Part shown: piece after piece, positions 11,458 through 50,218 of the stretch
Numbering within the stretch: the stretch's first letter is position 1
Layout of the letters: every line of letters begins with the position of its first letter
DNA from: an uncultured Acidobacteriota bacterium
Lineage (GTDB): Bacteria > Acidobacteriota > Vicinamibacteria > Vicinamibacterales > UBA2999
Length of the DNA stretch: 64,000 bases
Direction of reading: 5' to 3'
Assembly: GCA_963818645.1 (NCBI GenBank)
Contig: CAWFTF010000025.1
Span: 32,828-96,827 of the forward strand
Position numbers and translations under genes: made by a program
Notes under the pieces: generated by a model
Seen by the model: only the letters and a program-made list of their open reading frames with translations
Told to the model about the DNA's origin: nothing
Database searches by the model: none

Positions 11458-11460
11458 AGT

Positions 11461-12655: not shown

Positions 12656-12675
12656 CTCTGTGGAACCATCACGAC

Positions 12676-17975: not shown

Positions 17976-17995
17976 GAAGAGAGCGAGGGAGTGGA

Positions 17996-21698: not shown

Positions 21699-21724
21699 GG
21701 GGCAAAGTGTAGATCGAAGGGTGG

Positions 21725-25906: not shown

Positions 25907-26299
25907 ATGGCGCGTCGCCCCACTCCACGGCCCACAGACGCCGAACTTTCCATCCTCCGCGTCCTTTGGGAGCGAGGGCCGAGCACAGTCCGGCAGGTTC
26001 ACGACGTTCTGTCTGCCGACCGCGAGTTCGCCTACACGACCACGCTGAAGCTGCTGCAGTTGATGACGGAAAAGGGCGTCGCCATGCGAGAGGAGCACGG
26101 CCGCGTCCACCTGTACCGCGCGGCTGTCGCACAGGAGGAAACGCAGCGGCACCTGATCCGAGACCTGGTCGATCGCGCCTTTGGCGGCTCGCCCAGTCGG
26201 CTGGTGATGCAGGCCCTTGCCGCGACGCCGGCCTCCGCTGAGGAGTTGCGGGAGATCCGCCGCCTGTTGAAAGAGCACGAGGAGAAGGCCCGTGACTGA
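25907..26299 (+). CDS. BlaI/MecI/CopY family transcriptional repressor
   Basis: Winged-helix N-terminus (TDAELSILRVLWERGPSTVRQVHDVL...YTTTLKLLQLMTEKG), 130 aa, overlapping the downstream M56 gene. Confidence 0.9.
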   Translation: MARRPTPRPTDAELSILRVLWERGPSTVRQVHDVLSADREFAYTTTLKLLQLMTEKGVAMREEHGRVHLYRAAVAQEETQRHLIRDLVDRAFGGSPSRLVMQALAATPASAEELREIRRLLKEHEEKARD

Positions 26300-28046
26300 G
26301 CCGCTGCTCGATACGCCGCTCGTCCAGTCAATCGGCTGGGCGCTGATTCATTTCATCTGGCAGGGGACTGCGATCGGTCTCGCGACCGCCATCGCTCTTC
26401 GACTTCTCGCCGGAGCGCGACCGACGATGCGCTACGCGGTGGGATGTTTCAGCCTCGTGCTGATGCTGATCGTGCCAATTGCCGCGGTGTTCTCCGATCG
26501 CACATCTGATTCCCTGAACGTGGTCTCCGTTACCACAGCGGCCGTCGCCGCTGTGCCATCTCTGCCGATAAATCGTCTGCTGCCCACAACAGTCATCGTG
26601 TGGCTCGCGGGCGTGCTGCTGCTGTCGATTCGGTTGATCGCGGCATGCGCCGGCGTCGAGCGACTAAAGAGAGCCACTCGAGCAGTGGATGCGACGGTCG
26701 CTTTGCGAGTGCAATCGCTCGCACATCGTTTCGGCATCGACAAGCCAGTGCGTGTCTTCGAGTCGGCTCTCGTACGAGTGCCGACCGTCGTCGGCTATCT
26801 GCGACCGGTCATTCTGCTTCCCGCGAGCGTCATCACGGGCCTTGCTCCGGCGTACCTCGATGCCGTGCTCGCCCACGAGCTCGCTCACGTGCGCAGACAC
26901 GATTACCTCATCAACACGCTGCAGTCGCTTGTCGAAACGCTTCTCTTCTATCACCCGGCGGTGTGGTGGTGCTCACGTCAGATTCGAATCGAGCGTGAAC
27001 ACTGCTGCGACGACATGGTGGTCGAGGCCGGAGGCAATCGGGTGGCGTACGCGGCCGCGCTCGCTCAACTGGAAGAATTGAGAGGACTTCAACCCATGCT
27101 CTCGCTCAATGCATCTGGAGGGAGGCTCGTCGATCGCATTCGCCGCCTCCTTGGGGAATCGCCAATGAAGGAGCGCCGATTGACGACATGGACGATCGTC
27201 GCCGCGCTTGCCGTCGTGACCGCTATCGTTGTGACACCGGGCCGCAGCGTCGTCGACGCCAGTGAGCTCGTGCAGGTGCCTGCGCCGCCGACTGCTCCAG
27301 CACCGCTCGCTGGTGTGCGCGCCGCCAGCAAGACGTCTGAGACGGCAGACTGGGCTGACTACGTCCGTGAGACGCAGGCGGCGCTTGACGCGCTTGCCCG
27401 CGAGACGCAGGGAGTCGCGGTGCTTGCCGAACAGGCCGAGCCGCAACCTCAGGCGCAAGCCAGGCCGCAGCCCCAGGCCCAGCCTGCGCCCCAGTCTCAG
27501 GCTCAGCCCGCGCCGCAGCCGCAGCCTCAGCCTCAGCCAGCGCCGCGGCCTCAGGCTCAGCCCAGGCCTCAGCCACCGCTGCCGCCCGTGCCACCGACGC
27601 CTTCCGCCGTCGCTCTGCCACCGGCACCGCCGAGTCTTGCGCCCCTAGCGCCCGCGCCTCCATTACCTCCGAACTCACAGGTCGCGTTACCAGCGCTTCC
27701 GGCACCTCCCGCGCCACCGGCTCCACCCGCGGAGCCACTCGGCCTGGATCCGGACTCGATCCACGAGTTGATCACGAGTGCCACGCAACAGATCGCCGAA
27801 AGCTTTGAGGAGTTGCGCCGCGCCACCGAGGAGGTCGGTCTCAAGCAGGAAGCGATTCGTCAGGCGCAGGCCGAGATAGCGAAGATGCGAATCGAGTCGC
27901 TCACTGCCAAGGCGCAGATCGAAGTCATGCAGAAGACGCTCTCGGAGTTCTCAGCGAAGAGCGCGGCTTCGCAGTTGGATCGCCGAGAGATGCAAAAGCT
28001 GATCGACGAGCTCAGCGCGGAACTCGCGAAGCTGCGCGTTCGCTGA
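26292..28046 (+). CDS. BlaR1/M56 family membrane peptidase-sensor with P/Q/A-rich and coiled-coil C-terminus
   Basis: HELAHVRRHDY zinc motif after 4 TM helices. A C-terminal (PQ/AQ)n low-complexity region (27440-27740) is followed by a heptad-like helix. Confidence 0.9.
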   Translation: MTEPLLDTPLVQSIGWALIHFIWQGTAIGLATAIALRLLAGARPTMRYAVGCFSLVLMLIVPIAAVFSDRTSDSLNVVSVTTAAVAAVPSLPINRLLPTTVIVWLAGVLLLSIRLIAACAGVERLKRATRAVDATVALRVQSLAHRFGIDKPVRVFESALVRVPTVVGYLRPVILLPASVITGLAPAYLDAVLAHELAHVRRHDYLINTLQSLVETLLFYHPAVWWCSRQIRIEREHCCDDMVVEAGGNRVAYAAALAQLEELRGLQPMLSLNASGGRLVDRIRRLLGESPMKERRLTTWTIVAALAVVTAIVVTPGRSVVDASELVQVPAPPTAPAPLAGVRAASKTSETADWADYVRETQAALDALARETQGVAVLAEQAEPQPQAQARPQPQAQPAPQSQAQPAPQPQPQPQPAPRPQAQPRPQPPLPPVPPTPSAVALPPAPPSLAPLAPAPPLPPNSQVALPALPAPPAPPAPPAEPLGLDPDSIHELITSATQQIAESFEELRRATEEVGLKQEAIRQAQAEIAKMRIESLTAKAQIEVMQKTLSEFSAKSAASQLDRREMQKLIDELSAELAKLRVR

Positions 28047-31087: not shown

Positions 31088-31116
31088 TAAAAAAGCCCGG
31101 GTTCGTGTCCCCGGGC
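31088..31116 (-). terminator. Intrinsic-terminator-like hairpin in the cysD 5' leader (possible attenuator)
   Basis: The minus strand reads gcccggggacacgaacccgggc followed by ttttttatt, ending ~20 nt before the cysD RBS and ATG. Confidence 0.5.
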
Positions 31117-31298
31117 TTCGATCGCGTTAGCGTGTCTGGGTGTTTTTGCTATTCACCCGATTGCCAGATCGTCACCTTGGGGACCTTTACAGGTCCTGCT
31201 ACAACAGCAGCGGACACAAAGGCGACAGATTCGGACGGACATCGAATTAGATTCTACCCGCCAGCCGCCCTGAACGCAAAAAGGAGTAGCTTAAGGCC

Positions 31299-31694
31299 AT
31301 GAAACGCCTGCTATACGCCGTTGTCGCCCTGTCGGGCCTGCTGGCTGTGCCGCTCGCCGCGCACCATTCGTTTGCGGCGGAATTCGACGCCAGCAAGGCC
31401 ATCCGCGTCACCGGGACGCTGTCCAAGGTGGAGTGGACCAACCCCCACATTTACTTCTACTTGGACGCCAAGGACGAGCAGGGAAACGTGGTCAAGTGGA
31501 CCTGCGAATCGGGCGCTCCAGGCGCGTTGAGCCGGCGCGGGTTCAAGCGCGGCGACCTCAAACTCGGCGACACGATCGTGGTTGACGGGTATCGCGCGAA
31601 GAACGGGTCCAACCTGATGGATGCCCGTCGCGTGACCCTGGCCGACGGCCGCATCGTGTCGGGTGCTTCCGCCGGAGACGGAGGCCCGCAATGA
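31299..31694 (+). CDS. small secreted protein, DUF6152-like (mature N-terminus HHSF)
   Basis: Signal peptide ...AVPLAA|HHSFAAEFDASKAIRVTGTLSKVEWTNPH. RBS aaaggag. The stop overlaps the next ATG (ATGA). Paralogue at 36969..37391. Confidence 0.8.
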   Translation: MKRLLYAVVALSGLLAVPLAAHHSFAAEFDASKAIRVTGTLSKVEWTNPHIYFYLDAKDEQGNVVKWTCESGAPGALSRRGFKRGDLKLGDTIVVDGYRAKNGSNLMDARRVTLADGRIVSGASAGDGGPQ

Positions 31695-32530
31695 CCGCGA
31701 CCCGCACCGGCCTGGTCTCGATCGCCGTTCTGGTGGCGCTCGCCCTCACCGGGGTGGCCACACGTGCGCAACTGCAGGTCCCCGACTTCAAGTCGAACCG
31801 ACCGACGCCGCGCATGGCGAATGGCAAGCCCGACTTCAGCGGCTACTGGAAGGGGACGACGGATACCAAGCCCGGCGGCAACATCGGCAAGGACCTGCCG
31901 GGATGGAAGCTGCCGCTCACGCCGGCGGGTGAGGCCGCGCTCAAGCACAACCTCACGGCCACGATCGATCCCGAGAGCCTGTGCATCATCGGCGGGATCC
32001 CGCGCCACAACGCCAGCGGTCTTCCGTTCGAAGTCCTCCAGGGCAACAACAAGATCGCGTTCCTCTATTGGTACAGCTACTTCCGTCTGATTCCGATCGA
32101 TCCGAATCGCAAACACTCCGACGATCCGGATCCATCGTTCTTCGGCGAGGAGCTGGGTCGATGGGAAGGTGACACGCTGGTCATCGACTCGATCGGGTTC
32201 AAGGACGAGAAGGTCTGGATCGACGAGAACGCGAACCCTCACAGCGACGCGCTGCACGTCGTCGAACGATGGACGCGGCCTGATGCCGACCACATTCACG
32301 TTGAGACCTTGATCGAGGATTCGAAGTTCTACACGCGACCGTTCACGTATTCGCGAACGTGGGTGCTGGGAAAGCCTGACGAGGAAATTCAGGAATACGC
32401 GTGCAGCGAGAACAACGTCGATGCGGCCCATCTCGGTTTCGGACCGGGTCCGATTCGTCCCGATGGCACGCGCGGTTACATCGATCCCGCGCCGCTGCCG
32501 CCGCCGCTTCCTCGCGTGCCCGCGAAGTAG
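31691..32530 (+). CDS. secreted DGKPD-SG-W family protein (P280-1), function unknown
   Basis: Signal peptide, NGKPDFSGYW, C..GGIP, GRWEGDTLVIDS, HVVERW, FYTRPF, EYACSENN. Shares motifs with 36037, 37388 and 50218. Confidence 0.8.
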   Translation: MTATRTGLVSIAVLVALALTGVATRAQLQVPDFKSNRPTPRMANGKPDFSGYWKGTTDTKPGGNIGKDLPGWKLPLTPAGEAALKHNLTATIDPESLCIIGGIPRHNASGLPFEVLQGNNKIAFLYWYSYFRLIPIDPNRKHSDDPDPSFFGEELGRWEGDTLVIDSIGFKDEKVWIDENANPHSDALHVVERWTRPDADHIHVETLIEDSKFYTRPFTYSRTWVLGKPDEEIQEYACSENNVDAAHLGFGPGPIRPDGTRGYIDPAPLPPPLPRVPAK

Positions 32531-32736
32531 GTTGGTAGTGGGAAGTCAACTTTCTTTGACGACGATCCGCTCGCTGCGCTACAAGTAATGCCAATGACGC
32601 CCACGGCCCCGCGCCTCTGTTGTTGCTGTTGTTGTCGCTGCAACAGACGTGTCTCCGGTGACACGCGCGCGGTGGAGGGCCTCACGATGACGCCCTGAGT
32701 TCCTGATCTTTCATTCAGACTCGGCCACCGATCGAA

Positions 32737-32770
32737 GGCCCGGAGGTTCACGCTTCCGGGCCTTTTTCTT
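32737..32770 (+). terminator. Rho-independent terminator
   Basis: ggcccgga-ggttcacgct-tccgggcc followed by tttttctt. Confidence 0.7.
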
Positions 32771-32825
32771 TGTACGTCCAGGCCCCGAAGCATGGCGATC
32801 TCGCGAACACGACGAAGGAACCCAC

Positions 32826-35800
32826 ATGTTTCGGAAGTTGCTCTCGATAGTTCTGCTCCTGTTTGTGTCCGTTGCGCTGCAGGCGCAGCAGGCGAATAAC
32901 GCGATCCTCGTCGGCGTCATCAGCGACAGCACCGGCGCATTTCTTCCAGGCGCGACCGTCACCGCCACTCATGTGGCGACGAATACCTCGGTCGACATCC
33001 TCACCGACGAGCGCGGGCAGTACCGCACGCCTCCATTGCGGATCGGCGACTACGAGCTCACCGTCCGGCTCGACGGCTTTCGCACATTCGTGCGTCGCGG
33101 CGTCGTGCTCAACATCGGCGACGTTCGCAACGTCGACGCGACGCTCGACATCGGAGCGATTGCCGAGACCGTGACGGTCGACGCGACGCCACCCCCACTC
33201 AACACGTCGGACTCGACCGTCGGCACGGTCATCACCAACGAACAGATCGCGGCCCTCCCACTCAATGGACGCGACTATCTGCAATTGGCATCGCTGTCAT
33301 CGGGCACCGGGCCGGCCAGCAGCCAGGGTGTGGTCATTGGCGGGCAATCGGGAACCGCCGTCGCCTTCCTGCTCGACGGGCACGACAACAACAGCCAGCA
33401 GATCACGACCGGTCACTCGGGGCAGAAGGAGATCGTCAAGCCGTCAGTGGACGCGATTCAGGAGTTCAAGGTCGTCACCAACAGCTACTCAGCGGAATAT
33501 GGCCGCTCCTCGTCAGGCGTGGTCAGCGTGTCGCTCAAGTCGGGAACGAACAGCCTGAATGGCAGCCTCTACGAGTTCTTTCGCGACGACGCGCTGAACG
33601 CGACCAATTACTTCGCGACGACGAAGCCCGTCGACACGCGGCATCAGTTTGGCGGCGCCGTCGGGTTCCCAATCATCCGAAGCAAGACCTTCTTCTTCGG
33701 CGACTCCGAGACCGGCCGCATCCAGCGAGAGACGACGACGCTCTCGACGCTGCCGTCGGCGACGGCGCGAGCCGGTCAGTTCTCGCGGACGATCATCGAC
33801 CCGCTGACGACGTTGCCGTTCCCGGGGAATCAGATCCCGGCGTCGCGTGTCGATGCTGTGGCGGCGCGCATCCTCGGCTACGTGCCTCTGCCCCAGACGG
33901 GCGCTGCCACGAACAACTTCACCTACAACAGCCCGTCCGATCAGGACCAGCAGACGTGGGACGTTCGCATCGACCACGTGTTCAGCCCGAAGCACAACGC
34001 CTATGTCCGCGTGAGCTCTCAGCGCCTCGAGAACAAGCCGAACTCGCCACTCCCGCCGGATGCCAACGGCAACTACGTGGTCTCAGGCGCGAGCGACATC
34101 TCCGACAACAAGAGCATCGTCGTCGTCCACAACGCGGTCTGGTCGCGCAACGTCATCGGGTCGATCCGCGTGGGATACAACCGCATCGACTGGGACGAGA
34201 TCGTGCCGCCACAGGATCTGCGCGGGATCGGCATCCCCGGCGTCGACTCCAGCAACCCGGGCTTCTCGCAGATCGCGATCACCGGGTACCGGACGCTGGG
34301 AGTGTCGAACGTGCCCAATGCCGACGATTCGAAGAATCTTCAGGTGTCAGGCGACATATCGCTGACGAAGGGGACGCACACGATCAAGACAGGGGTCCAG
34401 CACTATCAGCTCGGGATCGACTTCCTCAGCTCGCAGCGCAGCAGCGGCATCTTCAACTTCAACGGCCAGTACACGGGCGATCCGTTCGCGGATTACCTGC
34501 TTGGATACGGATCGTCGGCGAGCCTCTCGAAGTACGCGAAGTTGAACTTCCGCACGCCCTATACCCACTTCTTCGCGCAGGACGACTGGCGAACGAGCGA
34601 GCGGCTCACGCTCAACCTTGGCCTGCGCTACGAGCTGAACTACCCGTCGGTCGATCAGAACGACGCGATCGCGAATTTCGATCTGGATACCGATCCGCTG
34701 AACCCGCGCATCGTGCTTGCGGGCTCGGAGGGTGACGATCGCGCCGCGCGTGCGCTGGTTGCCTACCAACTACCGGCAGTTCGCCCCGCGTGCCGGCTTC
34801 GCGTATCTCCTGCCCGGCGACAAGACGGTCATTCGAGGCGGAGCCGGCATCTTCTACGGAAACATGATCACGGTCGGCGGCATGTCGTCGCTCGAGATCA
34901 ATCCGCCGAATCACGTCCGCATCGCGCAGACAACAGACCGGACGATTCCATCGATCTTCTTGAGCCAGGGTTTTGCCGCCGACGCGTTGTCGGTTGCGAA
35001 CGCGCGCGACGTCAATCTGGTGTCATGGGATCGCAGCGACAAGCAGCCGACGGCGTACCAGTGGAACGTGAACGCACAGCGCGAGCTGCCCGGTCAGGTG
35101 GTTGTCGAGGTCGGCTACTACTCCAACCGTCTGGTCAACAACTGGCGATCGATCGACGGCAACCCGGCGCCTCCGGGTCCGGGAAACCTCAATCGCCGGC
35201 GCCTCTACCAGACGACCGCCGTGCCGCCGACGGGCGACGTCATTACGCTCGCCAACGTCACGCGCATTCAGAAGGACGGCTGGAGCCAGTACCACGGGCT
35301 CCAGACGAAGTTCGAGAAGCGCTACTCGAAGGGCATCTCGCTGCTTGCGGCGTACACGTGGTCGAAGACTCGCGGCCTCGAAGGCGGCTACCAGGACTAC
35401 ACGAACATCGATGCCGAAGTGGGGCCCACGTCCACCGATCGCCCGCACCACTTCGTTGGAAGCGGCATCTACGAGCTGCCGTTCGGTCACAACCGATCGA
35501 TTGGCGGTGATTGGGATGGTCTTACGAACGCGTTGCTTGGCGGGTGGAGCGTCAGTCCCATCCTCACGGCGACCTCGGGAGCGCCTCTCAACCTGACTGT
35601 CAACGGGAACCCGTCGAACTCGAGCGGCACGGATCGGCCGAATGTGGTGGGCGAGTGGCGGCTGGATGATCCGACGGCCGATCAGTGGTTCAACACCAGC
35701 GCATTCGTGGCGAATGCGCCGTTCACATACGGCAATGCGCCGAAAAACCTGATTCGCGGGCCAGGCTACTTCAATCTCGACATCTCGATTCAGAAGGCGT

Positions 35801-35970
35801 TCCGCGTGTCTGAGGGCGTACGCGCGGACATCAGGTTCGAGTCGTTCAACGTCACCAATGCCGTCAATCTCGGCAACCCCAATACCACTGTCGGCGACGT
35901 CAACTTCGGGCGCATCTCGTCTGCTGGCGCAGCGAGACAGAGCCAGGTTGCCGTGAAGCTGCTGTTCTGA
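32826..35970 (+). pseudogene. Oar-like TonB-dependent transporter (carboxypeptidase-regulatory-like N-domain), one frameshift
   Basis: Signal peptide, then GVISDSTGAFLPGATVTATHVATN...GQYRTPPLRIGDYELTV, and AETVTVDA. The barrel continues in the second frame from ~34759 (PTNYRQFAPRAGFAY...) and ends ...VAVKLLF. Confidence 0.85.
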
Positions 35971-35977
35971 ACCCTAT

Positions 35978-36009
35978 GGTCCACAGTCCACAGTCCTCAG
36001 TCCACGGTC
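35978..36009. repeat. Tandem octamer array, class C (GTCCACAG), single arm
   Basis: ggtccacagtccacagtcctcagtccacggtc lies directly after the transporter stop. Confidence 0.85.
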
Positions 36010-36036
36010 TACTCATGAAAAACCATAAGTTGCGAA

Positions 36037-36951
36037 GTGGCGCGATCGTCATGGCCGATGATCGCGGCGGGAGCAAGCACCGCGATCGCACAGGGAGCCC
36101 AGTCATGGCGCGAGCGAACGGTTGTGCCAATTGCGTCCGTCGAGTGGACGGGTGCGCGACTCGCAGACGGTCAGCCAGACGTGCAGGGCCACTGGTCCAA
36201 CACGATCGGCAACCACAACAACTTCACTCGTCCGCAAGGAGGCGACGATGGTGCGCCGGGCGGAGGAGCGAGGGAGCGGGGCCAGGCGAATCGCGCTCCG
36301 AGCCGGGTGAGTGATCCACCAGACGGTCAGATCCCATACCAGCCCTGGGCGCGAGCCAGACAACAGGAGTTCGGTTCTCATCTGGACGATCCGACGCGTC
36401 CCGAGTATGTCGAGCCGCTCGCACGGTGCGCGCCCGCAGGTCCAACCAAGTCGTTCATGTGGCACGGCTACGAGATCCGCCAGTATCCGGGCTATGTGCT
36501 GTTCCTCTTCGATTCTGGTACGCGAATCATCCACCTTGATGCCAAGCCGCATCTTGCGGAGAACGTCAAGCTGTGGAACGGCGACTCGCGCGGCCACTGG
36601 GAAGGCAACACGCTCGTCGTCGACGTCACCAACAACAACTCGAAGTCGCGGTTCGCGCGCACTGGTGAGTTCGTCAGCGAGCACGCGACCATTCAGGAGC
36701 GTTACATCTTCGACAGCGCGGGTGAGCGCTTCATCTATCAAGCGGTCTACACCGATCCGACCGTGCTGACGCGGCCGTTCACGGTGACGATTCCCAACCG
36801 CCGTATCACCGACAAGACGCCGCAGGACGGCTGGAACAACATCACGTTCCCCGCCATCCACTCCGGCACCGAACCCATCATCGAAGCCTACGAACGCACG
36901 TGCGTCGAGAACAACGGCGAGCACGGCGGCGTAGCTGTCGAGTCGAAGTAG
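36037..36951 (+). CDS. secreted DGKPD-SG-W family protein (P280-2)
   Basis: DGQPDVQGHW, RCAPAGP, GHWEGNTLVVDV, IQERY, DPTVLTRPF, AYERTCVENN. The true start may be ATG 36015 (MKNHKLRSGAIV...) with another indel near 36050. Confidence 0.75.
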   Translation: MARSSWPMIAAGASTAIAQGAQSWRERTVVPIASVEWTGARLADGQPDVQGHWSNTIGNHNNFTRPQGGDDGAPGGGARERGQANRAPSRVSDPPDGQIPYQPWARARQQEFGSHLDDPTRPEYVEPLARCAPAGPTKSFMWHGYEIRQYPGYVLFLFDSGTRIIHLDAKPHLAENVKLWNGDSRGHWEGNTLVVDVTNNNSKSRFARTGEFVSEHATIQERYIFDSAGERFIYQAVYTDPTVLTRPFTVTIPNRRITDKTPQDGWNNITFPAIHSGTEPIIEAYERTCVENNGEHGGVAVESK

Positions 36952-36968
36952 AGGAGAACCCGATAGCC

Positions 36969-37391
36969 ATGACACGCACAACTGCTTTACTCGGCGCCGT
37001 TCTCACGTGGGCGCTCGTCGTAACGGTGCCGGCAGCCGCGCATCATTCGTTTGCCGCGGAGTTCGACGCGAACAAGCCCGTTGAATTGAAGGGGGTCGTC
37101 ACCAGGCTTCAGTGGACGAACCCGCATGGGTGGATCTACGTGGACGTCAAGGACGCCAGCGGCGTCGTCACGAACTGGGCGATCGAGTTCGGTGCGCCGT
37201 ACAGCCTGCTGCAGAAGGGACTGCGCAAGAGTGACTTCCCGGTGGGCTCCGAGGTCGTCGTGAAAGGATTCCGCGCCAAGACCGGCAAGGCAGTGGCCAA
37301 CGCGCGGAGCGTCACGCTGCCCGACGGACGCAACTTCTACGCATCGGGGGGAGACAGTCCGGGCGCACCGGTGGAAGTGAGCGCGCGATGA
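36969..37391 (+). CDS. small secreted protein, DUF6152-like (mature N-terminus HHSF), paralogue 2
   Basis: ...TVPAAA|HHSFAAEFDANKPVELKGVVTRLQWTNPH. The stop overlaps the next ATG (ATGA). Confidence 0.8.
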   Translation: MTRTTALLGAVLTWALVVTVPAAAHHSFAAEFDANKPVELKGVVTRLQWTNPHGWIYVDVKDASGVVTNWAIEFGAPYSLLQKGLRKSDFPVGSEVVVKGFRAKTGKAVANARSVTLPDGRNFYASGGDSPGAPVEVSAR

Positions 37392-38158
37392 GGCTACCAG
37401 CGCTGCTCTTGTTGTTGGCTGCCTCGTCTCTGCTTACAGCGCACGGCGCGTGGGCGCAGGAGACACAGCCGTCGATCCCTCGTAGTGCCGACGGCAAGCC
37501 TGACTTCTCCGGAATCTGGCAGACGCTGAGCGCCGCCGAGTACGACCTGGAGCCGCACTCGACCCGGAAAGATGCACCTCCCGGACCGGGCATCGTCGAA
37601 GGGCAGGTCATCCCGTATCGGCCGGAGGCGTCGCAACAGCGCAAGAAGAATTTCGACGCGCGCGCGACCAACGACCCGCGCGAGAAGTGCTTCACCCTCG
37701 GGACGCCGCGCGGCATCTACTCGCCGGAGCCCTTTCAAATCTTCCAGCGCGCACGCGACCTGACGCTGGTCTTCCAGTTCGGGCACTCGGTGCGCACGAT
37801 TCACACCAACGAGACTCGTCACCCGAAGGCCCGATCGGATTCTGGCTCGGTGACTCCCGCGCTCGATGGGAAGGGGACACGCTCGTCGTCGATGTCGTCG
37901 ACTTCAACGGCGAGACCTGGCTCGATCGCGCCGGGAACTTCCACAGCGACCAACTGCACGTCGTCGAGCGCTGGTCCTTCCTCGACGCCAACACGATTCA
38001 GTACACCGCGACGCTCGAGGACCCGACGGTGTACACGCGGCCGTGGAGCCTGAGCGTGATACTGCACCGGCACCGCGAACCCGAATTTTCAGCTGATCGA
38101 GAACTACTGCTACACGCTCGACTACGACAAGTTCTATCCCGTGCCCTCCGGGCAATAG
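37388..38158 (+). pseudogene. secreted DGKPD-SG-W family protein (P280-3), two frameshifts
   Basis: ADGKPDFSGIW...KCFTLGTP... (frame 1), then EGPIGFWLGDSRARWEGDTLVVDV...HVVERW...DPTVYTRPW (from ~37820), then QLIENYCYTLDYDKFYPVPSGQ* after the TTTT run at 38086-38089. Confidence 0.8.
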
Positions 38159-38193
38159 GGCTGACGAATATGTATCGAATCAGGAGAACGTCA

Positions 38194-38661
38194 ATGAAGA
38201 CAGCAGGTGTCATGATGATGTTGGCTGCCCTCGTCACGTGTGGGCGCCACGGGGCAGGCGCAGCAACCGGCGCAGGGCGAATGTCGTCGCGCCCGGCCTC
38301 GACCGCAAAGATCCTCAAGCGTGCGGAGATCGATGCGCTGCTCGCGCAGCCGTCGAACGTGCTCGTCATCGACGTGCGGCGTCCCGACGAGATCGGGTCG
38401 ATCGGCGGTTTCCCGGTTTATCTGAACGTGCAAGCCGGTGATCTCGAGAAGCGACTCCCGTCGATTCCGAAGGACCGCCTGATCATCACCGTTTCGAATC
38501 ACGCGTCGCGCGCCGGACGTGCGGCGGACCTTTTGCAGAAGAACGGCTTCAACGTGGCCGGTGCCGCCGGCGCTCAGGACTACGAAGCCGAGGGAGGCGC
38601 GCTCGTGAAGATTGCGCCGCCATCGCGAAGCACGGCCTCGGCCGAGCCACGCAAGCAGTAA
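38194..38661 (+). CDS. secreted rhodanese-homology domain protein, active-site Cys replaced by Ser
   Basis: Signal/lipobox-like N-terminus, VLVIDVRRPDEI, and an active-site loop reading IITVSNHASRAGRAADLL where rhodaneses have C-x4-R-[SA]. Confidence 0.75.
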   Translation: MKTAGVMMMLAALVTCGRHGAGAATGAGRMSSRPASTAKILKRAEIDALLAQPSNVLVIDVRRPDEIGSIGGFPVYLNVQAGDLEKRLPSIPKDRLIITVSNHASRAGRAADLLQKNGFNVAGAAGAQDYEAEGGALVKIAPPSRSTASAEPRKQ

Positions 38662-38668
38662 CGGATTC

Positions 38669-38743
38669 GGCGCGGTGGCGAAGCGGCAACGCGGTGGTCT
38701 GCAAAACCACCATCCGAGGGTTCGAGTCCCTCCCGCGCCTCCA
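38669..38743 (+). tRNA. tRNA-Cys (GCA)
   Basis: Acceptor ggcgcgg/ccgcgcc, anticodon arm gtggt-ctGCAaa-accac, T arm gaggg-ttcgagt-ccctc, discriminator t and encoded CCA. Folded by hand. Confidence 0.9.
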
Positions 38744-38755
38744 GTGGGGAAATCG

Positions 38756-39416
38756 ATGATCACGGAGGTTCAGGCCGACGAGGGGAGCGTCAACTGGTCG
38801 CGGGTGGCAGCGTTGTTCGAGGATCGATACGGCGCTGGATCGGCCGAGCGGCTCATCTCGATGCTCGAGCAGCCGTGCGTGACGTTTGCGCGCATCGCCA
38901 GCCGAGTTCGGTGTCACCCGTGAATGCGTCCGACTGTGGCATCAGCGCCTGTTGCCGGACGCGCCACGTGGGCATCAGCGACAGCAGTTGTGCCGCGAGC
39001 ATCAGATGAAGCGGCGATTGCTCGAGGACGCGCTGTTCCTCAGGTTCTATCGCCACATCCGATCGTCGGTGCCGCACCAGCGCGTCACCCTGATCCCGTC
39101 ACGCGACGGGTTTCGCAAGCGCACGGTGCGTATCGATGGCCGTACGATCGCGCTCAGGCGTGCGCGTCGGAACAGTGCGTGGCGCGGCTCGAACAACGGG
39201 ACTGTCTATACCCTGACGAGCAGTCCTGCCGGCGCGGATCTCTTGTATTACGAGCTCTCGTCCGAGGACTACCTGCTTGTTCCACGAGAGGCTCTGCCCG
39301 TTGGAATCGTCACGTACGTCGACACGGACGCATCAACGTATCAGCGTTTCAAGAACACCTTGGCAGCGCTTTCGCGACCGTCTAGCCTTCAGGTCGAATG
39401 GGCTCGGCGGGGGTGA
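38756..39416 (+). pseudogene. hypothetical protein with putative HTH segment, one frameshift
   Basis: MITEVQADEGSVNW...CVTFARIAS (frame 1) continues as EFGVTRECVRLWHQRLLP... (frame 2) near 38902. No family recognised. Confidence 0.5.
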
Positions 39417-40290
39417 TTCGAGAGCGAGCGAGCTCCTCGTTGCGTTTGACCTGGGGCAATTGCACCGAGAAGAAACGATAGAGAAGCCACGAGTCGAGCA
39501 GGCCCACTGCCACGAGCACGAGATATGCGAGATTGCTCTGCACGAGGCCGAGGTCCTTGAGCAGCGTCGACAAGCCGAAGCCGACGATCCACGCATCGAA
39601 GCTCATACACAAGCGACGGAAGGTTTCCGGGCGGATTCGCTGGATGATGTAGGCGCCGATCGGTACGCCAATCGCAATGCTTGGCAGGATGTACGGGATG
39701 AGCGCCATACTCTGCACCGTGTAGAGTCCGGCGTAGGCATACGCGATCGCAGTGAAGCTCGATTCCGCCAGCCGGATGAAGCCGAGTGCGGCGCGAAAGT
39801 CTCTCTGCGTCAGGCCCTGGTTGCTCAGCATCACCGCCAGCGGTGGCCCTGAGATCGTGGTGACCGAGTAGAGCACGCCGACGCCGCCGCCGAACACCAA
39901 CCCGACCGACCGCTCGGACTTGATCGGCCTTCGATACCCGGCCGCCTGAAACAGGATCAACGGCAGCAGAACGATGAACGTGCCGAACCGGAGCCAGCCC
40001 GGGTTGACGATCGACACAATCGCGGTGCCGAGGATGACGCCCGGCAGCAGACCGATCACGATCGGCAGCACGCGCCGCCACACGCGAGGCAGTGCGTCCC
40101 GATTCACCCATAGCACGTAGGCGTTGAGGGCGACTTCGATCGGGATGAGTGCCGGGTTGAGAACGCGGTTGGTCAGGAAGAGCAGCGCGATCGGAACGGT
40201 GATCGACGAGAACCCGTAACCAAGGGCACCGTTGACGATAGCCGCGCCGAGCGTGATGAAGACGAGTGCGAGCTGAGCAGGGTCCATCAC
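39382..40290 (-). CDS. TauE/SafE family sulfite/anion exporter
   Basis: N-terminus LGAAIVNGALGYGFSSITVPIALLF and 8 TM helices with internal duplication, typical of DUF81/TauE. Confidence 0.85.
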   Translation of the reverse strand: MMDPAQLALVFITLGAAIVNGALGYGFSSITVPIALLFLTNRVLNPALIPIEVALNAYVLWVNRDALPRVWRRVLPIVIGLLPGVILGTAIVSIVNPGWLRFGTFIVLLPLILFQAAGYRRPIKSERSVGLVFGGGVGVLYSVTTISGPPLAVMLSNQGLTQRDFRAALGFIRLAESSFTAIAYAYAGLYTVQSMALIPYILPSIAIGVPIGAYIIQRIRPETFRRLCMSFDAWIVGFGLSTLLKDLGLVQSNLAYLVLVAVGLLDSWLLYRFFSVQLPQVKRNEELARSRITPAEPIRPEG

Positions 40291-40360
40291 GTCGTGAGCC
40301 AGCCAGTCTTGCGTGTTTGTCGCGACTCTGTCAACGCCTGCACCGTTTGACGTCGAACAT

Positions 40361-41432
40361 TCATTCGGACTCGTCCACGGTGTGATGCTGCCGATACTGG
40401 CGCCAGTCGATCTTCAGCTTCCGCATGCGCGCGCGCAGCGTATGCGGGTTGATCTCGAGCAGGCGCGCCGCCCCGTGCCGCCCCTCGACCCGGCCGCCGG
40501 TCGCCTCGAGCGCAGCCTCGATGTGCTGTCGAATGACGACGTCGAGCGGCGCAAGGCGGGACGGCGCCGTCTCGCTCGATCGCACCGGAGCGGGAGCCGA
40601 TGCCCTCGGGTCCTGGCCGAGTGCGCCCGCAACGTTGAGCGCTTTCCCCTGACCGATTAACACCGCGCGGTCCATCACCGCGGCCATCTCGCGCACGTTA
40701 CCCGGCCACTGATACTCGGCCAGCAACTTCACGTCACTGTCCGAGACCGGCACCGGACGAAGACCGAAGCGGTTTGCCGCGAGCTCCGCGAAGTACTCGG
40801 CAAACGCACGGATATCGCTCGGGCGATCGCGCAGCGGCGGGATCACGATCGGAAACACCGAGAGGCGATAGTACAGGTCTTCGCGAAACGTCTGCTGTTC
40901 GACCATGCTGGGCAGATGGCGGTGCGTGGCGGCCACGATTCGCACGTTCACTTTGACCGGCCGCTCTCCGCCGACGCGAACCAGCTCGGATTCCTGGACC
41001 ACGCGCAGCAGGCGGACTTGCGCCGCGAGGTGCAAGCTCGCCGACTTCGTCGAGAAACAGCGTGCCGCCGTCGGCCTGCTCGAACCAGCCTTTGCGCCGG
41101 GCCACTGCACCAGTGAAGGCGCCCTGCTCGTGGCCGAACAGTTCCGAATCGATGAGTTCGGCAGGAATCGCTCCACAGTTGACGCGGCGGAATGGGCCGT
41201 GCCGGAACGGCGAGTGTTCGTGGATTGCGCGGGCGATGATCTCCTTGCCGGTTCCGGTCTCACCGAACACCAACACCGGCGCGGCACTGCGGGAAACGAT
41301 GCGGGCCCGCGCCATCACCGCCGCCAATCCTGTGTCGCCGCCGATCAGCCGCTCCTCGCCCGCGCGAGTGTCGCCATTGATGAGCACGGCAGGAGCCAGC
41401 CGCGTCGGAGCTATCTTCTGTTTCTGTGACAT
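40361..41432 (-). pseudogene. sigma-54-dependent transcriptional activator (AAA+ plus Fis-type HTH, no sensory domain), one frameshift
   Basis: GETGTGKE Walker A, GAFTGA loop and [12 protein letters not shown] (frame 1). Then [18 protein letters not shown]...RIVAATHR...WPGNVREM and a C-terminal HTH (AARLLEINPHTLRARMRKL) in frame 2. The switch is near 41035. Confidence 0.85.
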
Positions 41433-41483
41433 ATGACAGATATCGACTGGCTATTATTACAGAAAATCTGTCTTATTTAACAG
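41424..41483. promoter_or_regulatory. AT-rich segment with two CTGT-N8-ACAG dyads (candidate activator binding sites)
   Basis: ctgtgacatatgacag (41424-41439, overlapping the activator ATG) and ctgtcttatttaacag (41468-41483), plus acagaaaatctgt between them. The local AT-richness is unique in the window. Confidence 0.45.
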
Positions 41484-41532
41484 AAGTAGATGATTCCGGG
41501 TCTGGGAAGTCAAATTCCACGGAAAACCCGCA

Positions 41533-41548
41533 CGGTCCAGGTCTTGCC
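41533..41548 (+). promoter_or_regulatory. candidate sigma-54 (-24/-12) promoter
   Basis: cGGtccaggtcTTGCc has GG (41534-35) and TTGC (41544-47) at exactly the TGGCAC-N5-TTGC spacing. The -24 flank is weak. It lies ~240 nt upstream of ATG 41787 and ~50 nt downstream of the dyads. Confidence 0.35.
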
Positions 41549-41786
41549 TCTTGCCCATGCGATGTCTCCGCTCGCCCATCGATGTCCCTGTCGTCCCACG
41601 TCGTGTCGGTGCGCATGTATGACGCCGACGACCACCGGGTGGTAAGCGACCTCCGCTAGTTCGGTCCGCCCCCACCCTCTGCCCCGGTCGATCGGCTCAC
41701 CAGTTCACGTCACACACACGTTGCTGTGCGCAGGCACGCACAGCAGTTTCGGGGCGCCGATCGGTGCATCGGCCAGAGGAGATTCG

Positions 41787-44372
41787 ATGTTTCGCAGAGT
41801 GTTCATGTTGTCCGCGGTGCTGCTCGCCGGGTTGATTCCCGCGACAGCCAGCGCTCAGACCGCGGCCGCTGTCGGCGGTGTGGTTCGTGACTCGTCCGGC
41901 GGTGCCATCCCCGGTGCGACGGTTCGCGTGATTAACGAAGCCACCGGCGCCGCGCAGGAAGCCGTCAGCGACGCAGAGGGCCGCTATCAAGTGACCGACC
42001 TGGCTCCCGGCCAGTATCGCGTGGAGGCGGCGCTCGACGGATTCGAGCCGGCCGTTGCTCGTGGTGCCGTCGACGGACGCCAGGCGGCGAAGATCGACGT
42101 GACGCTGACGCCTGCTCGATTCACGGAAGGCGTGGTCGTGACGGCTCGTCGTGTCGAAGAGGCGGCTCAGGAAGTTCCCATTCCGGTGTCGGTGTTGAGT
42201 GGCGAGCTTGTCGCCAACGCCGGCGCGTTCAACGTGAATCGCGTGAAGGAACTGATTCCGACCGTCCAGTTCTATTCGTCCAATCCACGCAACTCCGCGG
42301 TCACCATTCGTGGCATCGGTTCACCGTTCGGCCTCACCAACGACGGCATCGAGGCCGGCGTCGGCCTCTACATCGACGGCGTGTTCTACGCGCGTCCGGC
42401 GTCGGCCACGCTCGACTTTCTCGACGTCGCGCAGGTTGAAGTGTTGCGCGGACCGCAGGGGACGCTCTTCGGCAAGAACACGACGGCGGGTGCCATCAAC
42501 GTGACCAGCAAGCGGCCCACGTTCACGCCGGAATCGAACATCGAGCTGGCCTATGGCAGTTACGACTTCGTTCAGGCGAAGGCTTCGGTGTCAGGCGGGT
42601 TCAATGAGAAGGTCGCCGGACGGGTCTCGTTCTCGGGCACCGGGCGCGACGGGTTCATCTTCAACACCGCCGAGCAGGCGAAGACGAACACGCTGAACAA
42701 TCTGGGCTTCCGTGGTCAATTGCTCGTCCTGCCGTCCAAGCAGGTGGCCATCAACGCCTCGGTCGATCACACGCGGCAGCGCCCGAATGGGTATGCACAG
42801 GTGATTGCGGGTGTGGCGCCGACGCTTCGACCGGCCAACCGGCAGTGGGCGCAGATCGTCTCCGATCTCAACTACACGCCGCCGAGCTACAACGCGTTCG
42901 ATCGCCTGACGGACACCGACACGAGCTGGCAGTCCAACCAGGATCTCGGTGGCGGCTCGGCCACGATCGACTGGACGGTGGGACGAGGACGGATCACGTC
43001 GCAGACCGCCTACCGATACTGGAACTGGGATCCATCCAATGACCGCGACTTCATCGGCCTGCCGGTGACGACGATCTCGGCCGGCACCTCGAAGCAGCGC
43101 CAGTGGACGCAGGAGGTCCGGTATGCGGGGCCGCTGTCCTCGCGCTTCAATCTGGTCACCGGCATCTTCGCGTTCCACCAGGGCATCGACTCCAATCCGG
43201 TGATTAAGCAGGAGCAGGGATCGGCGGCGGCGCGTTTCCTCCTGGCGCCGAGTGCCGCCGCGGCGACGCCCGGCCTTCTCGATGGATACGGATTCGATCA
43301 ATATCTGAAATTCCGCAATATGAGCGCAGCGGCGTTTGGTCAACTCGAATGGCTCGTCACCGATCGCCTTCGCATCCTCCCGGGCCTGCGCTTCAACTAC
43401 GACCAGAAGGACGTGGACTTCAACCAGACCGTCTATGGCGGACTCCAGACGACGAATCCGGCGCTCGTCGCGCTGAAGCTCTCGGTCCTCGCGCCGCAGG
43501 CATACACCGCCGACGTCGATGACACGAACACCTCCGGGCAGCTGACGGTGGCATACAAGGTCACCCCGGCCGTGAACACCTACGGCACATACTCGACCGG
43601 CTTCAAGTCCGTCGGCCTCAACCTGAATGGTGTGCCGACGGATGCGCTCGGCAACCCAGTTCTTTCAGCAGCGGTGATCAAGCCGGAAGACGCACGTCAC
43701 GTGGAGTTCGGCGTGAAGACCGAGTTCCACCCCGGTTACACCGCGAACTTCACGGTCTTCAACACCAGGATCAAGGACTACCAGACGCAGGTCGTGAATG
43801 CGCAGGTCGGCGTGTTACGTGGCTACCTGGCGAACGCCGAGAAGGTGCGTGTGAGAGGCGCCGAATTCGACGGCAGCGCACGGATCAACAAACGGCTCTC
43901 GTTCTATGGCGCCGCCGCCTATACCGACGGTATCTACGTCTCGTTCCCCGACGCGCCGCCGCCGCTCGAAGAGACCGGCGGTCCACAGGTAAAGGACATC
44001 TCCGGCTCCGTGCTCCCCGGCATCTCGAGGTGGGCACTCACGTTCGGTGGTGAATACAACAAGCCGGCCACTGTCTTCGGCCAGAACGGCGAGTTCTTCG
44101 GCGCCGTCGACAGCAGCTATCGAACCGAGTTCTCGTCGAGCCCGTCCGCGTCGCGCTACATGATGGTGGACGGCTATGGACTGGTCAACCTGCGGACCGG
44201 GTATCGCTGGAACGATGGTTGGTCGGTATTCCTCTGGTCGCGCAATCTGCTCGACAAGCAATACTACGAGATCCTCTCGGCGCAGCCGGGGAACTCCGGA
44301 TTGATCGTCGGCTTGCCCGGAGACCCGCGCACGATCGGCCTGACCGTGCGCATGAATCTTCGCTCGAAATAG
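41787..44372 (+). CDS. TonB-dependent receptor with N-terminal carboxypeptidase-regulatory-like domain
   Basis: Signal peptide, GGVVRDSSGGAIPGATVRVINEATG...GRYQVTDLAPGQYRV, TonB-box-like EGVVVTA, plug (VEVLRGPQGTLFGKNTTAGAINV) and a 22-strand-size barrel. Confidence 0.9.
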   Translation: MFRRVFMLSAVLLAGLIPATASAQTAAAVGGVVRDSSGGAIPGATVRVINEATGAAQEAVSDAEGRYQVTDLAPGQYRVEAALDGFEPAVARGAVDGRQAAKIDVTLTPARFTEGVVVTARRVEEAAQEVPIPVSVLSGELVANAGAFNVNRVKELIPTVQFYSSNPRNSAVTIRGIGSPFGLTNDGIEAGVGLYIDGVFYARPASATLDFLDVAQVEVLRGPQGTLFGKNTTAGAINVTSKRPTFTPESNIELAYGSYDFVQAKASVSGGFNEKVAGRVSFSGTGRDGFIFNTAEQAKTNTLNNLGFRGQLLVLPSKQVAINASVDHTRQRPNGYAQVIAGVAPTLRPANRQWAQIVSDLNYTPPSYNAFDRLTDTDTSWQSNQDLGGGSATIDWTVGRGRITSQTAYRYWNWDPSNDRDFIGLPVTTISAGTSKQRQWTQEVRYAGPLSSRFNLVTGIFAFHQGIDSNPVIKQEQGSAAARFLLAPSAAAATPGLLDGYGFDQYLKFRNMSAAAFGQLEWLVTDRLRILPGLRFNYDQKDVDFNQTVYGGLQTTNPALVALKLSVLAPQAYTADVDDTNTSGQLTVAYKVTPAVNTYGTYSTGFKSVGLNLNGVPTDALGNPVLSAAVIKPEDARHVEFGVKTEFHPGYTANFTVFNTRIKDYQTQVVNAQVGVLRGYLANAEKVRVRGAEFDGSARINKRLSFYGAAAYTDGIYVSFPDAPPPLEETGGPQVKDISGSVLPGISRWALTFGGEYNKPATVFGQNGEFFGAVDSSYRTEFSSSPSASRYMMVDGYGLVNLRTGYRWNDGWSVFLWSRNLLDKQYYEILSAQPGNSGLIVGLPGDPRTIGLTVRMNLRSK

Positions 44373-44427
44373 CGCGTCGGCGCGGGCGGTGCTTGCGTGT
44401 TGCTCGCGTCCGCGCCACCATGTCGAG

Positions 44428-45687
44428 ATGTCGTTCGACGGTAGCAACCGAATCTGGCAACACGCGAGCGCGTTCGCCGCGCTGATGGTCATCGCGCTGA
44501 CCGTGGCGGCGTGCACCTCGCCGCCACCACCGGTGCCGCCTGCCGCGACCACCGCCGCAAAAACGTTCGTCGGGTCGGCCGCGTGCGAATCGTGCCATCG
44601 CGACGAATACAGCAGATGGAAGGACACGCTCATGGCGCGTGTCGTCCTCGATCCGGCACAGCATCCAGATGCTGTGCTGGGCGATTTCTCCACGCCGAAT
44701 CCGCTCGTCACGTTCAAGAAGGAAGAGGTGGCGTTCATCTACGGTACGAAGTGGAAGCAGCGCTACTTCACCAAACGCGGAGACGACTACTTCGTGTTCC
44801 CCGCGCAGTGGGACATCCAGGCAAAGACGTGGCGGCGCTACTACGTCGAGCCGGGAACGGACTGGTGGGCCGAGCATTACCCAGCCGACCAGATGCAGAG
44901 ACCGACGGGTCCTCTCTGCGACGGCTGTCATTCGGTCAACTACGACATCAAGACCAAGCAGGTGACGGAGTGGAACGTCGGTTGTGAGAAGTGTCACGGC
45001 GCCGGAAGCCTGCACGTGCAGAATCCGGTAGCCTCGACCATCGTCAATCCCGCGAAGCTCCAGGGCGACCGGGCCGACGATGTGTGTCTGCAGTGTCATA
45101 CGCAGGGTCAGCCACGCACGAAACCGCTCGAGGGCGTCTACTACGACTGGCCGGTGGGTTATCAACCGGGCGATCGACTCAGCGACGTCTGGATGCTCGA
45201 AGAGCATCACCTCGGCAAGGAGACGTTCACGCACTGGCCCGACGGTCACGCACACAAGAACCGGATGCAGGGAAACGACTTCGTGCAGAGTCAGATGTCG
45301 TTGAAAGGCGTGCGCTGTTACGGATGCCACGACGTGCACGGCACGCCGAATGAGGCTGACCTGCGGTTGCCGGGAAATGCGGTCTGCTTACAGTGTCATG
45401 ATCCCCGGCGACAGCCGGGCCCACCTGGAACGCTGGAGCAACATACGCAGCACGCGGCCAACAGTGAAGGCAGCAAATGCATCGCGTGTCATATGCCGCT
45501 CATCGCGCGGACTGTCGGCACGGTGAACGTTCGCAGTCACACGTTCAAGTTCATTTCCCCGAGCACGACTCTGCAGAATGGCGTGCCCAATCCCTGCACG
45601 TCGTGCCACAAGGACCGCACGCCGCAGTGGGCGAGCGACGCGTTGAAGAAATGGCCGGGGGTTTCCGCATGGCGCGTCGGCGGTTAG
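44428..45687 (+). CDS. octahaem c-type cytochrome, probable lipoprotein
   Basis: Eight CxxCH motifs (CESCH, CDGCH, CEKCH, CLQCH, CYGCH, CLQCH, CIACH, CTSCH). Lipobox LTVAAC. Start ATG 44428 within ORF 44389..45687. Confidence 0.9.
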   Translation: MSFDGSNRIWQHASAFAALMVIALTVAACTSPPPPVPPAATTAAKTFVGSAACESCHRDEYSRWKDTLMARVVLDPAQHPDAVLGDFSTPNPLVTFKKEEVAFIYGTKWKQRYFTKRGDDYFVFPAQWDIQAKTWRRYYVEPGTDWWAEHYPADQMQRPTGPLCDGCHSVNYDIKTKQVTEWNVGCEKCHGAGSLHVQNPVASTIVNPAKLQGDRADDVCLQCHTQGQPRTKPLEGVYYDWPVGYQPGDRLSDVWMLEEHHLGKETFTHWPDGHAHKNRMQGNDFVQSQMSLKGVRCYGCHDVHGTPNEADLRLPGNAVCLQCHDPRRQPGPPGTLEQHTQHAANSEGSKCIACHMPLIARTVGTVNVRSHTFKFISPSTTLQNGVPNPCTSCHKDRTPQWASDALKKWPGVSAWRVGG

Positions 45688-50149: not shown

Positions 50150-50218
50150 GGATCCGGGATTCGGGATTCGGGATTCGGGATTCGGGATTCGAGAGTCCAA
50201 AGCCGAGAGCCGAGAGCC
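50150..50218. repeat. Class B array in opposite orientation (GGGATTCG)5 followed by class G (CCGAGAG) units
   Basis: ggatccgggattcgggattcgggattcgggattcgggattcgagagtccaaagccgagagccgagagcc lies between convergent genes. Confidence 0.9.

Follow-up and report, generated by a model that had tools for sequence, protein, structure and literature searches.

What do two families of small secreted proteins do in the cell envelope, and do they belong to the outer-membrane transporter whose gene they flank? This question is raised by a locus in a stretch of 64,000 nucleotides from an uncultured Acidobacteriota bacterium (Vicinamibacterales, UBA2999; GenBank assembly GCA_963818645.1, contig CAWFTF010000025.1, positions 32,828 to 96,827), which is called the window here. 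The locus carries two pairs of genes for a protein of the DUF6152 family (Pfam PF19649) and a protein of a second family, termed P280, together with a third P280 gene and a TonB-dependent transporter (TBDT) of the Oar type (Table 1). We found that DUF6152 and P280 genes keep company across many soil bacteria, with or without a transporter. The reading that we favour, at a probability of about 0.4, is a soluble two-protein module for binding and hand-over in the envelope, with a candidate metal or ligand site at the N-terminus of DUF6152.

A preliminary description of the locus had given gene order and coordinates, which were confirmed by the open reading frame listing, by Pfam and by direct reading. 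In both pairs the stop codon of the DUF6152 gene overlaps the start codon of the P280 gene as ATGA, and these overlaps were read directly at 31691 (GCAATGAC) and at 37388 (GCGATGAG). The spacer between P280-2 and DUF6152-2 is 17 nt long and contains a GAGGAG ribosome-binding site. The terminator proposed between P280-1 and the TBDT gene is present as a 14-bp hairpin with a T-run; it closes the first unit and is conserved in L002, a contig from a long-read metagenome assembly that is 95% identical to the window (loci are cited by such numbers throughout). Both flanks were found as described, with cysD, cysN and cysH in divergent orientation upstream of DUF6152-1, and the rhodanese-like gene and tRNA-Cys at the other end.

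The small protein had been likened to DUF6152, and this identification holds, both copies scoring above the PF19649 gathering score of 27 bits (Table 1). As had been suspected, the P280 proteins form one family without annotation. Sequence searches of Pfam, NCBIfam and the PDB with the P280 proteins of the window gave no match; none of 51 diverse members matched Pfam, and the family profile found nothing in the PDB. The family is nevertheless large, since P280-1 alone has 3,384 word-indexed relatives, all of whose displayed source names are 'hypothetical protein', and an exhaustive HMMER scan returned 8,434 cluster representatives (50%-identity clusters) at E <= 1e-3.

The preliminary description had asked for the co-occurrence of the two families in other genomes, and this is far beyond chance. 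The survey took P280 as the anchor for 80 genome loci and DUF6152 for 80 metagenome loci, mapped both families in them by profiles, and counted pairing only where a gene or cluster had 1 kb or more of flank on each side. A P280 gene is found no more than 200 bp away for 29 of 35 DUF6152 genes (83%), in 26 cases on the same strand. Among 98 P280-anchored clusters, 41 contain both families, 5 DUF6152 only, 43 a single P280 gene, 8 two P280 genes and 1 four of them. Thus, DUF6152 is close to an obligate neighbour of P280, while P280 also functions without DUF6152. With D for a DUF6152 and P for a P280 gene, the common orders are D-P, D-P-P and P-P-D, and P280-2 clusters with a subtype that is located immediately upstream of DUF6152 genes.

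The D-to-P junctions are tight as well: 26 of 75 show a 4-nt overlap (17 ATGA, 6 GTGA and 3 TTGA), and the others have spacers of 5-25 nt. A gammaproteobacterial metagenome-assembled genome (MAG; L069) carries two tandem fusion genes (10477-12578 and 12563-14542), each joining DUF6152 to a P280 domain through a linker of about 70 residues. The pairwise identities of paired D and P proteins correlate (r = 0.67), DUF6152 being slightly more conserved than its partner (45% versus 38% identity). Because co-occurrence beyond chance, 4-nt overlaps and natural fusions come together, a physical complex of DUF6152 and P280 is plausible.

DUF6152 is a strictly patterned protein. In 60 aligned sequences the residues A21, H22, H23, F25, E28, D30, G39, W46, N48, P49 and H50 are invariant, as are G62, W67, E70, P74, L77, G81, G90, K101 and G117, and A21-H22-H23 is also invariant in a set of 51 sequences. 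In every aligned sequence displayed, the two histidines come immediately after the AxA motif of the signal peptide, and with cleavage predicted at this motif the mature protein should begin with His-His. When a secreted protein has an invariant residue at its very N-terminus, its free amino terminus usually has a part in function, as in CopC, YcnI, lytic polysaccharide monooxygenases (LPMOs), nickel superoxide dismutase (Ni-SOD) and tissue inhibitors of metalloproteinases (TIMPs). By analogy, the most economical reading is that H22 and H23 coordinate a metal or a ligand and so provide a candidate site.

An AlphaFold2 model of DUF6152 (predicted local distance difference test, pLDDT, 86) forms a barrel of five strands with a helix inserted between the third and the fourth, and Foldseek matched it with probability 1.0 to oligonucleotide/oligosaccharide-binding (OB) folds, among them the anticodon-binding domain of LysRS, SSB, PriB and Stn1. 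DUF6152 is thus predicted to be an OB-fold protein. The Pfam profile of the BOF family (YgiW/YdeI) did not match DUF6152, for which PF19649 was the only Pfam hit at E <= 0.01, and no EF-hand family of Pfam matched DUF6152 or P280, the 51 P280 members included. A likeness to 6xi3, a repeat of the Lap adhesin, for which a single sequence gave E 9e-9 and the profile a weaker value, was set aside because the model is an OB-fold; it is a compositional resemblance to a β-rich repeat. A literature search found no paper that mentions DUF6152 or PF19649.

The P280 proteins share a conserved motif near the N-terminus, P-x-P-R-x-x-D-G-K-P-D-L-S-G-x-W, a near-invariant cysteine pair (C98 and C238 in P280-1) and the further motifs WEGDTLVVD, ER, DP and E-x-Y-x-C-x-E-N-N. 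The AlphaFold2 model of P280-1 (pLDDT 86, predicted template modelling score 0.83) has a helical N-terminal segment followed by 8-9 consecutive antiparallel strands, and the nearest Foldseek matches, all of them weak, were streptavidin, cellular retinoic acid- and fatty acid-binding proteins (CRABP/FABP), the lipocalin-like Tp0751, NanoLuc and nitrophorins. On the first strand G51-x-W53 is invariant, and GxW is the signature of lipocalins. From the model, P280 is predicted to be a calycin-like β-barrel for a ligand. The lipocalin, FABP and avidin families gave no sequence-profile match, either in Pfam with the 51 members or in the PDB with the family profile.

The data establish family membership, fold predictions, residue conservation, linkage of the genes, coupled translation and fusions; for the D/P module we infer complex formation, a periplasmic location, a metal or ligand site and an accessory role, which could combine as follows. 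Sec signal peptides would export both proteins, and cleavage by signal peptidase would expose His-His at the new N-terminus of DUF6152. These histidines, the Asn-Pro-His segment and several invariant acidic, basic and aromatic residues would most likely form a fixed binding site for a metal or a ligand, and the barrel of P280, the slightly more variable partner, would likely hold a small molecule. The two proteins would be produced in fixed proportion and probably form a heterodimer in the periplasm. The module may then act as a soluble accessory for binding or hand-over, serving TonB-dependent uptake at some loci and oxidation by pyrroloquinoline quinone (PQQ) quinoproteins and cytochromes c at others, and would not be a dedicated part of an Oar-type transporter.

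Several observations weigh against this reading. DUF6152 is absent from 52 of the 98 P280-anchored clusters, so that P280 does not need it, and P280 proteins encoded next to DUF6152 show no residues of note that distinguish them from solitary ones. P280 has no invariant histidine or cysteine cluster typical of a metal site, and its structural matches are weak (Foldseek probability 0.97-0.98 with E >= 0.01 and TM <= 0.58). Neither a TBDT nor a PQQ enzyme nor a cytochrome is encoded beside most of the clusters. In addition, signal peptides and localisation were assigned by eye only throughout.

The same-strand neighbours of the clusters are heterogeneous. Among 131 of them, the only families found more than three times were Glyoxalase (6), DUF6644 (5), Lactamase_B (5), CytoC_RC (4) and Cytochrome_CBB3 (4). 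PQQ dehydrogenases are located within 700 bp of the module in 7 non-redundant loci, within 3 kb in 5 more, the window among them, and farther away in 1; additional cases are found on long contigs anchored on DUF6152 (L164, L167, L171, L173 and L175). Thus, PQQ dehydrogenases are enriched beside the module at least as strongly as TBDTs. Most of these enzymes contain the sequence WDYD, the Asp-x-Asp signature of lanthanide-dependent enzymes.

These neighbours are the basis of the alternative that survives best, in which the pair takes a lanthanide, another metal or PQQ from a TBDT to apo PQQ dehydrogenases, which would make an inner-membrane transporter unnecessary. No other specific neighbour is as strongly enriched as the PQQ dehydrogenases, which often stand directly beside DUF6152 (L031, L097, L167, L173 and L175), and in L069 the stop of the D-P fusions overlaps the start of a PQQ dehydrogenase gene. 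The WDYD motif agrees with such a role, as does the lack of ABC transporters among the frequent neighbour families. Acidobacteria use quinoproteins, and some of them, all of the class Vicinamibacteria, encode the PQQ importer PqqU without genes for PQQ synthesis (PMC12124388). A preprint of 2026 proposes a different small periplasmic protein, which has no conserved domains and is encoded next to lanthanide TBDTs, as a lanthanide carrier (bioRxiv 10.64898/2026.07.10.737718). We nevertheless consider such a shuttle rather unlikely. A PQQ enzyme is adjacent in only about 3% of the clusters, and the 64-kb window contains several P280 paralogues, more than the carrier of a single cofactor seems to need; the many paralogues are a mild argument for diverse ligands. 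A histidine-rich site is unlike the known carboxylate-rich lanthanide sites, and neither an EF-hand nor another known lanthanide or PQQ motif was found in DUF6152 or P280. Finally, no adjacent TBDT matched PqqU or another specific NCBIfam model above its cut-off.

A more novel reading would make DUF6152 a new N-terminal His-His metal centre on a secreted OB-fold that, together with P280, would form a previously unrecognised periplasmic system for PQQ- and lanthanide-dependent quinoprotein metabolism in Acidobacteriota and some Proteobacteria. The system would either bridge TonB-dependent import and apo-dehydrogenases as the missing carrier, or work with these enzymes as their redox-active partner; this reading is, in our view, doubtful.

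The preliminary description had placed the gene pairs around an Oar-like transporter and regarded them as its possible cargo or accessories. The transporter of the window does have the domains of the Oar type, CarboxypepD_reg, Plug and a full OMP_b-brl_4 barrel. When only full-length TBDTs were counted and fusions of CarboxypepD_reg with P280 were excluded, a TBDT was found within 700 bp of 17 out of 179 clusters (about 10%), compared to 3, 5, 3, 4, 3 and 2 in the successive outer 700-bp bins. TBDTs are locally enriched about 3-fold, yet they occur in a minority of clusters, and the link is facultative. Enrichment near the module thus bears out one part of the description; the association with the Oar type in particular is overstated, as the transporters flanking the module in Proteobacteria (Derxia L072, L004 and L030) are of the classical Plug and TonB_dep_Rec type.

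It follows from the same data how the export model fares, in which the D/P proteins would be cargo or accessories of the Oar-type TBDT. The model draws on Myxococcus xanthus, where secretion of PopC depends on Oar. In its favour, one D/P set of the window stands in an apparent operon with the transporter, and several loci of Acidobacteriota, L001, L020, L055, L077 and L153 among them, have an Oar-type TBDT directly next to a D/P cluster. Moreover, some P280 proteins (P0213, P0217, P0225 and P0259; loci L036, L039, L041 and L145) carry an N-terminal CarboxypepD_reg domain, as found at the head of Oar-type TBDTs. Besides the low rate of adjacency and the classical transporters of Proteobacteria, two gene arrangements argue against the model. 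In the window, the strong terminator separates D1-P1 from the TBDT, so that the pair appears to be its own transcription unit. In Derxia lacustris the operon has the order TBDT-D-P-P-DUF6644-DUF6644 and runs on into genes for inner-membrane proteins, which suggests inward rather than outward traffic. As no export-specific feature was found either, a cargo or accessory role is weakly supported at best, and we regard export as distinctly improbable.

A two-subunit periplasmic metalloenzyme has also to be weighed. Here DUF6152 would provide a copper or other centre resembling a histidine brace and the barrel of P280 would take up the substrate, while neighbouring PQQ dehydrogenases or cytochromes c would deliver electrons, by analogy with LPMOs that are fed by such partners. 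The invariant histidine directly behind the predicted cleavage site and a third invariant histidine fit this model. So do the recurrent redox neighbours, namely PQQ dehydrogenases, proteins with cytochrome c domains, PSCyt-ankyrin proteins and AhpC/redoxin-like proteins, and the glyoxalase/dioxygenase-fold and metallo-β-lactamase-fold proteins that recur nearby. The predicted OB-fold, however, differs from the β-sandwich of known histidine-brace proteins, P280 has no identifiable catalytic residues, and the DUF6644 profile is not similar to CopD (hhalign probability 0.1 against E. coli YebZ, a weak test with a single sequence). An enzyme of this kind thus seems quite unlikely.

DUF6644, which was rejected as a relative of CopD on this comparison, weakly resembles DUF2214. 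About a dozen loci have a tandem pair of these four-helix membrane proteins directly beside a D/P cluster, for example in the order D-P-P-DUF6644-DUF6644 in a Methylococcales MAG. The pair of the window is located about 2 kb downstream of a gene for an eight-heme cytochrome c (44389-45687), and its distance to a solitary P280 gene is about 1.6 kb. Cytochrome c proteins recur as neighbours of D/P clusters. In two Acidobacteriota loci (L169 and L176) genes for a PSCyt/PSD protein, an HXXSHH (DUF1552) protein and an ankyrin-repeat protein are followed by P280-P280-DUF6152; the same trio lies beside a tandem DUF6152 pair in L177, and a PSCyt1-ankyrin protein adjoins P280-P280-DUF6152 in L028 and L063.

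Sulfur genes surround the locus in the window and its relatives. The cysH-cysN-cysD genes are divergent from D1-P1 in at least 7 related contigs, and a TauE-family permease is encoded nearby in the window, L002, L086, L164 and L166. Elsewhere, L129 encodes a close homologue of the rhodanese-like protein next to DUF6152, and in L146 a fragment of a cysteine desulfurase adjoins D/P. In a Pseudomonadota MAG (L004:5490-8154), genes for an encapsulin of the SrpI type (family 2A) and a cysteine desulfurase are divergent from a DUF6152/P280/TBDT cluster. Although these neighbours could suggest an accessory of sulfur assimilation, for instance for scavenging sulfur compounds under joint regulation with cysDNH, such a role is very improbable, because the cysDNH synteny is limited to one Vicinamibacterales-like lineage, the neighbour families that are frequent in the D/P family as a whole include no sulfur genes, and the shared intergenic region is mostly the minus-strand structured leader and terminator of cysD, not of D1. 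The sulfur-gene context is specific to the lineage of the window and not a property of the D/P family.

The intergenic region itself holds a non-coding element that is structured and conserved. When the surroundings of the locus were searched for known riboswitches (Rfam), only tRNA-Cys was returned. Both the long helix of the element and its GGACC hairpin show compensatory changes among four distinct sequence variants; several positions pair as G-U on the minus strand but would be A-C mismatches on the plus strand. On the minus strand the element ends in an intrinsic terminator (31119-31092), directly before the start of cysD. Judged from these four variants only, it appears to be a cysDNH leader of an undescribed kind, an attenuator or riboswitch-like.

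The TBDT and P280-3 are not intact genes in the window, which the preliminary description had not noticed: the TBDT has one frame break and P280-3 has two. In the TBDT gene an extra T near 34764 shifts the frame, and Pfam finds OMP_b-brl_4 positions 2-428 in one frame and 430-838 in the other. P280-3 is broken near 37826 and near 38075. In L002, which served as the comparison, the extra T and the break near 37826 are absent, whereas the break near 38075 is common to both sequences. A sigma-54 activator gene at 40361-41432 is likewise split, and the alignment of the window with L002 contains 62 single-base gaps in 8 kb. Since two of the three breaks are missing in L002 and the activator gene is also split, the breaks near 34764 and 37826 are most likely assembly indels and not signs of pseudogenes, leaving aside that near 38075. 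This indel pattern is typical of long-read assemblies, and split genes in the window should not be taken as pseudogenes. All members had been said to carry signal peptides; these were judged by eye, and that of P280-2 is disrupted in the window by a -1/+1 indel pair (36040-36060) and normal in L002.

Likewise, the term repeated cassette is correct insofar as there are two D/P pairs, but the copies are old: D1 and D2 are 44% identical, P1 and P3 35%, and P1 and P2 22%, which points to ancient paralogy. Besides the three P280 genes of the locus, three further paralogues elsewhere in the window had gone unmentioned, one of them solitary. The other two form a tandem pair that comes after a gene for a metallo-β-lactamase-fold protein and converges on the PQQ dehydrogenase gene. 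A related Vicinamibacterales contig (L166:8001-13523) has the order D-P, TBDT (864 aa), TauE. In the window, genes for TauE and an 883-aa TBDT follow at 39382-44372, and the block from the Oar-type TBDT over P2, D2, P3 and the rhodanese-like gene to tRNA-Cys lies between D1-P1 and these genes; relative to the order in L166 it is placed as if it had been inserted. The region upstream of cysH (25907-28046) encodes a BlaI-like repressor together with a BlaR1-like M56 sensor whose long tail is rich in proline and of the coiled-coil type; the related contigs L002, L164 and L165 keep this arrangement.

Table 1. Position, strand and properties of the features discussed; coordinates refer to the window.
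Feature	Position	Strand	Properties
Tandem divergent P280-like genes	17160-17975 and 17972-18976	+	P280 profile matches; no Pfam match
Soluble PQQ-dependent dehydrogenase	19731-21785	-	684 aa; WDYD motif; among the loci within 3 kb
Conserved structured non-coding element	31092-31262	-	Between DUF6152-1 and cysD; no Rfam match
DUF6152-1 (D1)	31299-31694	+	131 aa, secreted; PF19649 E 1.1e-28, 99.7 bits; predicted mature N-terminus HHSF
P280-1 (P1)	31691-32530	+	279 aa, secreted; start overlaps DUF6152-1 stop (ATGA)
Intrinsic-terminator-like hairpin	32734-32765	+	14-bp stem with 8 GC pairs, then T-run TTCTTTGT
Oar-type TBDT	32826-35970	+	CarboxypepD_reg, Plug and full OMP_b-brl_4; frame broken near 34764
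P280-2 (P2)	36037-36951	+	P280 profile E 3e-52; divergent 'beta' subtype, usually just upstream of DUF6152
DUF6152-2 (D2)	36969-37391	+	140 aa; PF19649 E 2.5e-31, 108.1 bits; predicted mature N-terminus HHSF
P280-3 (P3)	37388-38158	+	Start overlaps DUF6152-2 stop (ATGA); reconstructed from three-frame translation
Secreted rhodanese-like gene	38194-38661	+	Pfam Rhodanese at gathering threshold, E 1.9e-4; possible last gene of the operon
tRNA-Cys (GCA)	38669-38743	+	ARAGORN; Rfam tRNA 64 bits; locus boundary
DUF6644 tandem pair	47610-48110 and 48207-48602		Four-helix membrane proteins; invariant His, Arg and Lys
Solitary P280 paralogue	50218-51066	-	P280 profile E 3e-72; 31% identical to P280-1

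P280 is a very large family without annotation in the libraries searched, and it is abundant in soil Acidobacteriota, which are dominant and yet poorly understood. Linkage to DUF6152, coupled reading frames and natural fusions turn two orphan families into one testable module. Handles for such work are the N-terminal His-His of DUF6152, the cysteine pair of P280 and a cultured host with a compact operon, Derxia lacustris HL-12. The neighbourhood of PQQ dehydrogenases and TBDTs bears on the supply of cofactors to periplasmic quinoproteins in soil bacteria that do not make PQQ.

Comparison with known systems places the module next to, but not within, several groups. The D/P proteins resemble BtuF, FhuD, lanmodulin, PqqT and the lanthanide-carrier candidate in being secreted, soluble and, at some loci, encoded next to a TBDT, and like these periplasmic partners of TBDTs they have a predicted barrel or pocket fold that suits a small ligand and lack enzyme motifs. 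In contrast to these binders, they combine a predicted OB-fold with a calycin-like barrel instead of a class III substrate-binding protein or an EF-hand, consist of two proteins, are linked to a TBDT only facultatively (about 10%) and have no ABC partner among their frequent neighbours. Similarly, the window TBDT is of the same architecture class as Myxococcus xanthus Oar, with an N-terminal CarboxypepD_reg domain and a large barrel. Unlike Oar and PopC, however, the D/P module mostly occurs without a TBDT and can also be paired with a classical one, and PopC is a subtilisin-like protease unrelated to DUF6152 or P280.

With CopC/PcoC, YcnI, PmoD and LPMOs, DUF6152 shares an invariant histidine as the predicted first mature residue and a further invariant histidine, and like the N-terminal-histidine copper proteins it is predicted to be small, all-β and periplasmic. 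It differs from them in its predicted OB-fold, which is not an immunoglobulin-, cupredoxin- or fibronectin type III-like sandwich, and in having two consecutive N-terminal histidines. Unlike in the CopC-CopD system, the partner is a putative calycin-like barrel, and the DUF6644 profile is not similar to that of E. coli YebZ. P280, in turn, resembles lipocalins and other calycin-like proteins (Blc, YceI, ZinT/YodA, FABPs and streptavidin) in its predicted antiparallel barrel, the GxW of the first strand and its secretion; ZinT likewise has a barrel and a histidine-rich metal site at the N-terminus. In contrast to lipocalins, P280 has a longer helical N-terminal segment, a cysteine pair and the motifs DGKPDLSGxW and WEGDTLVVD, and shows no profile match to them. 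Taken together, the D/P module is best seen as a new variation, with two proteins, on the theme of periplasmic binding accessories.

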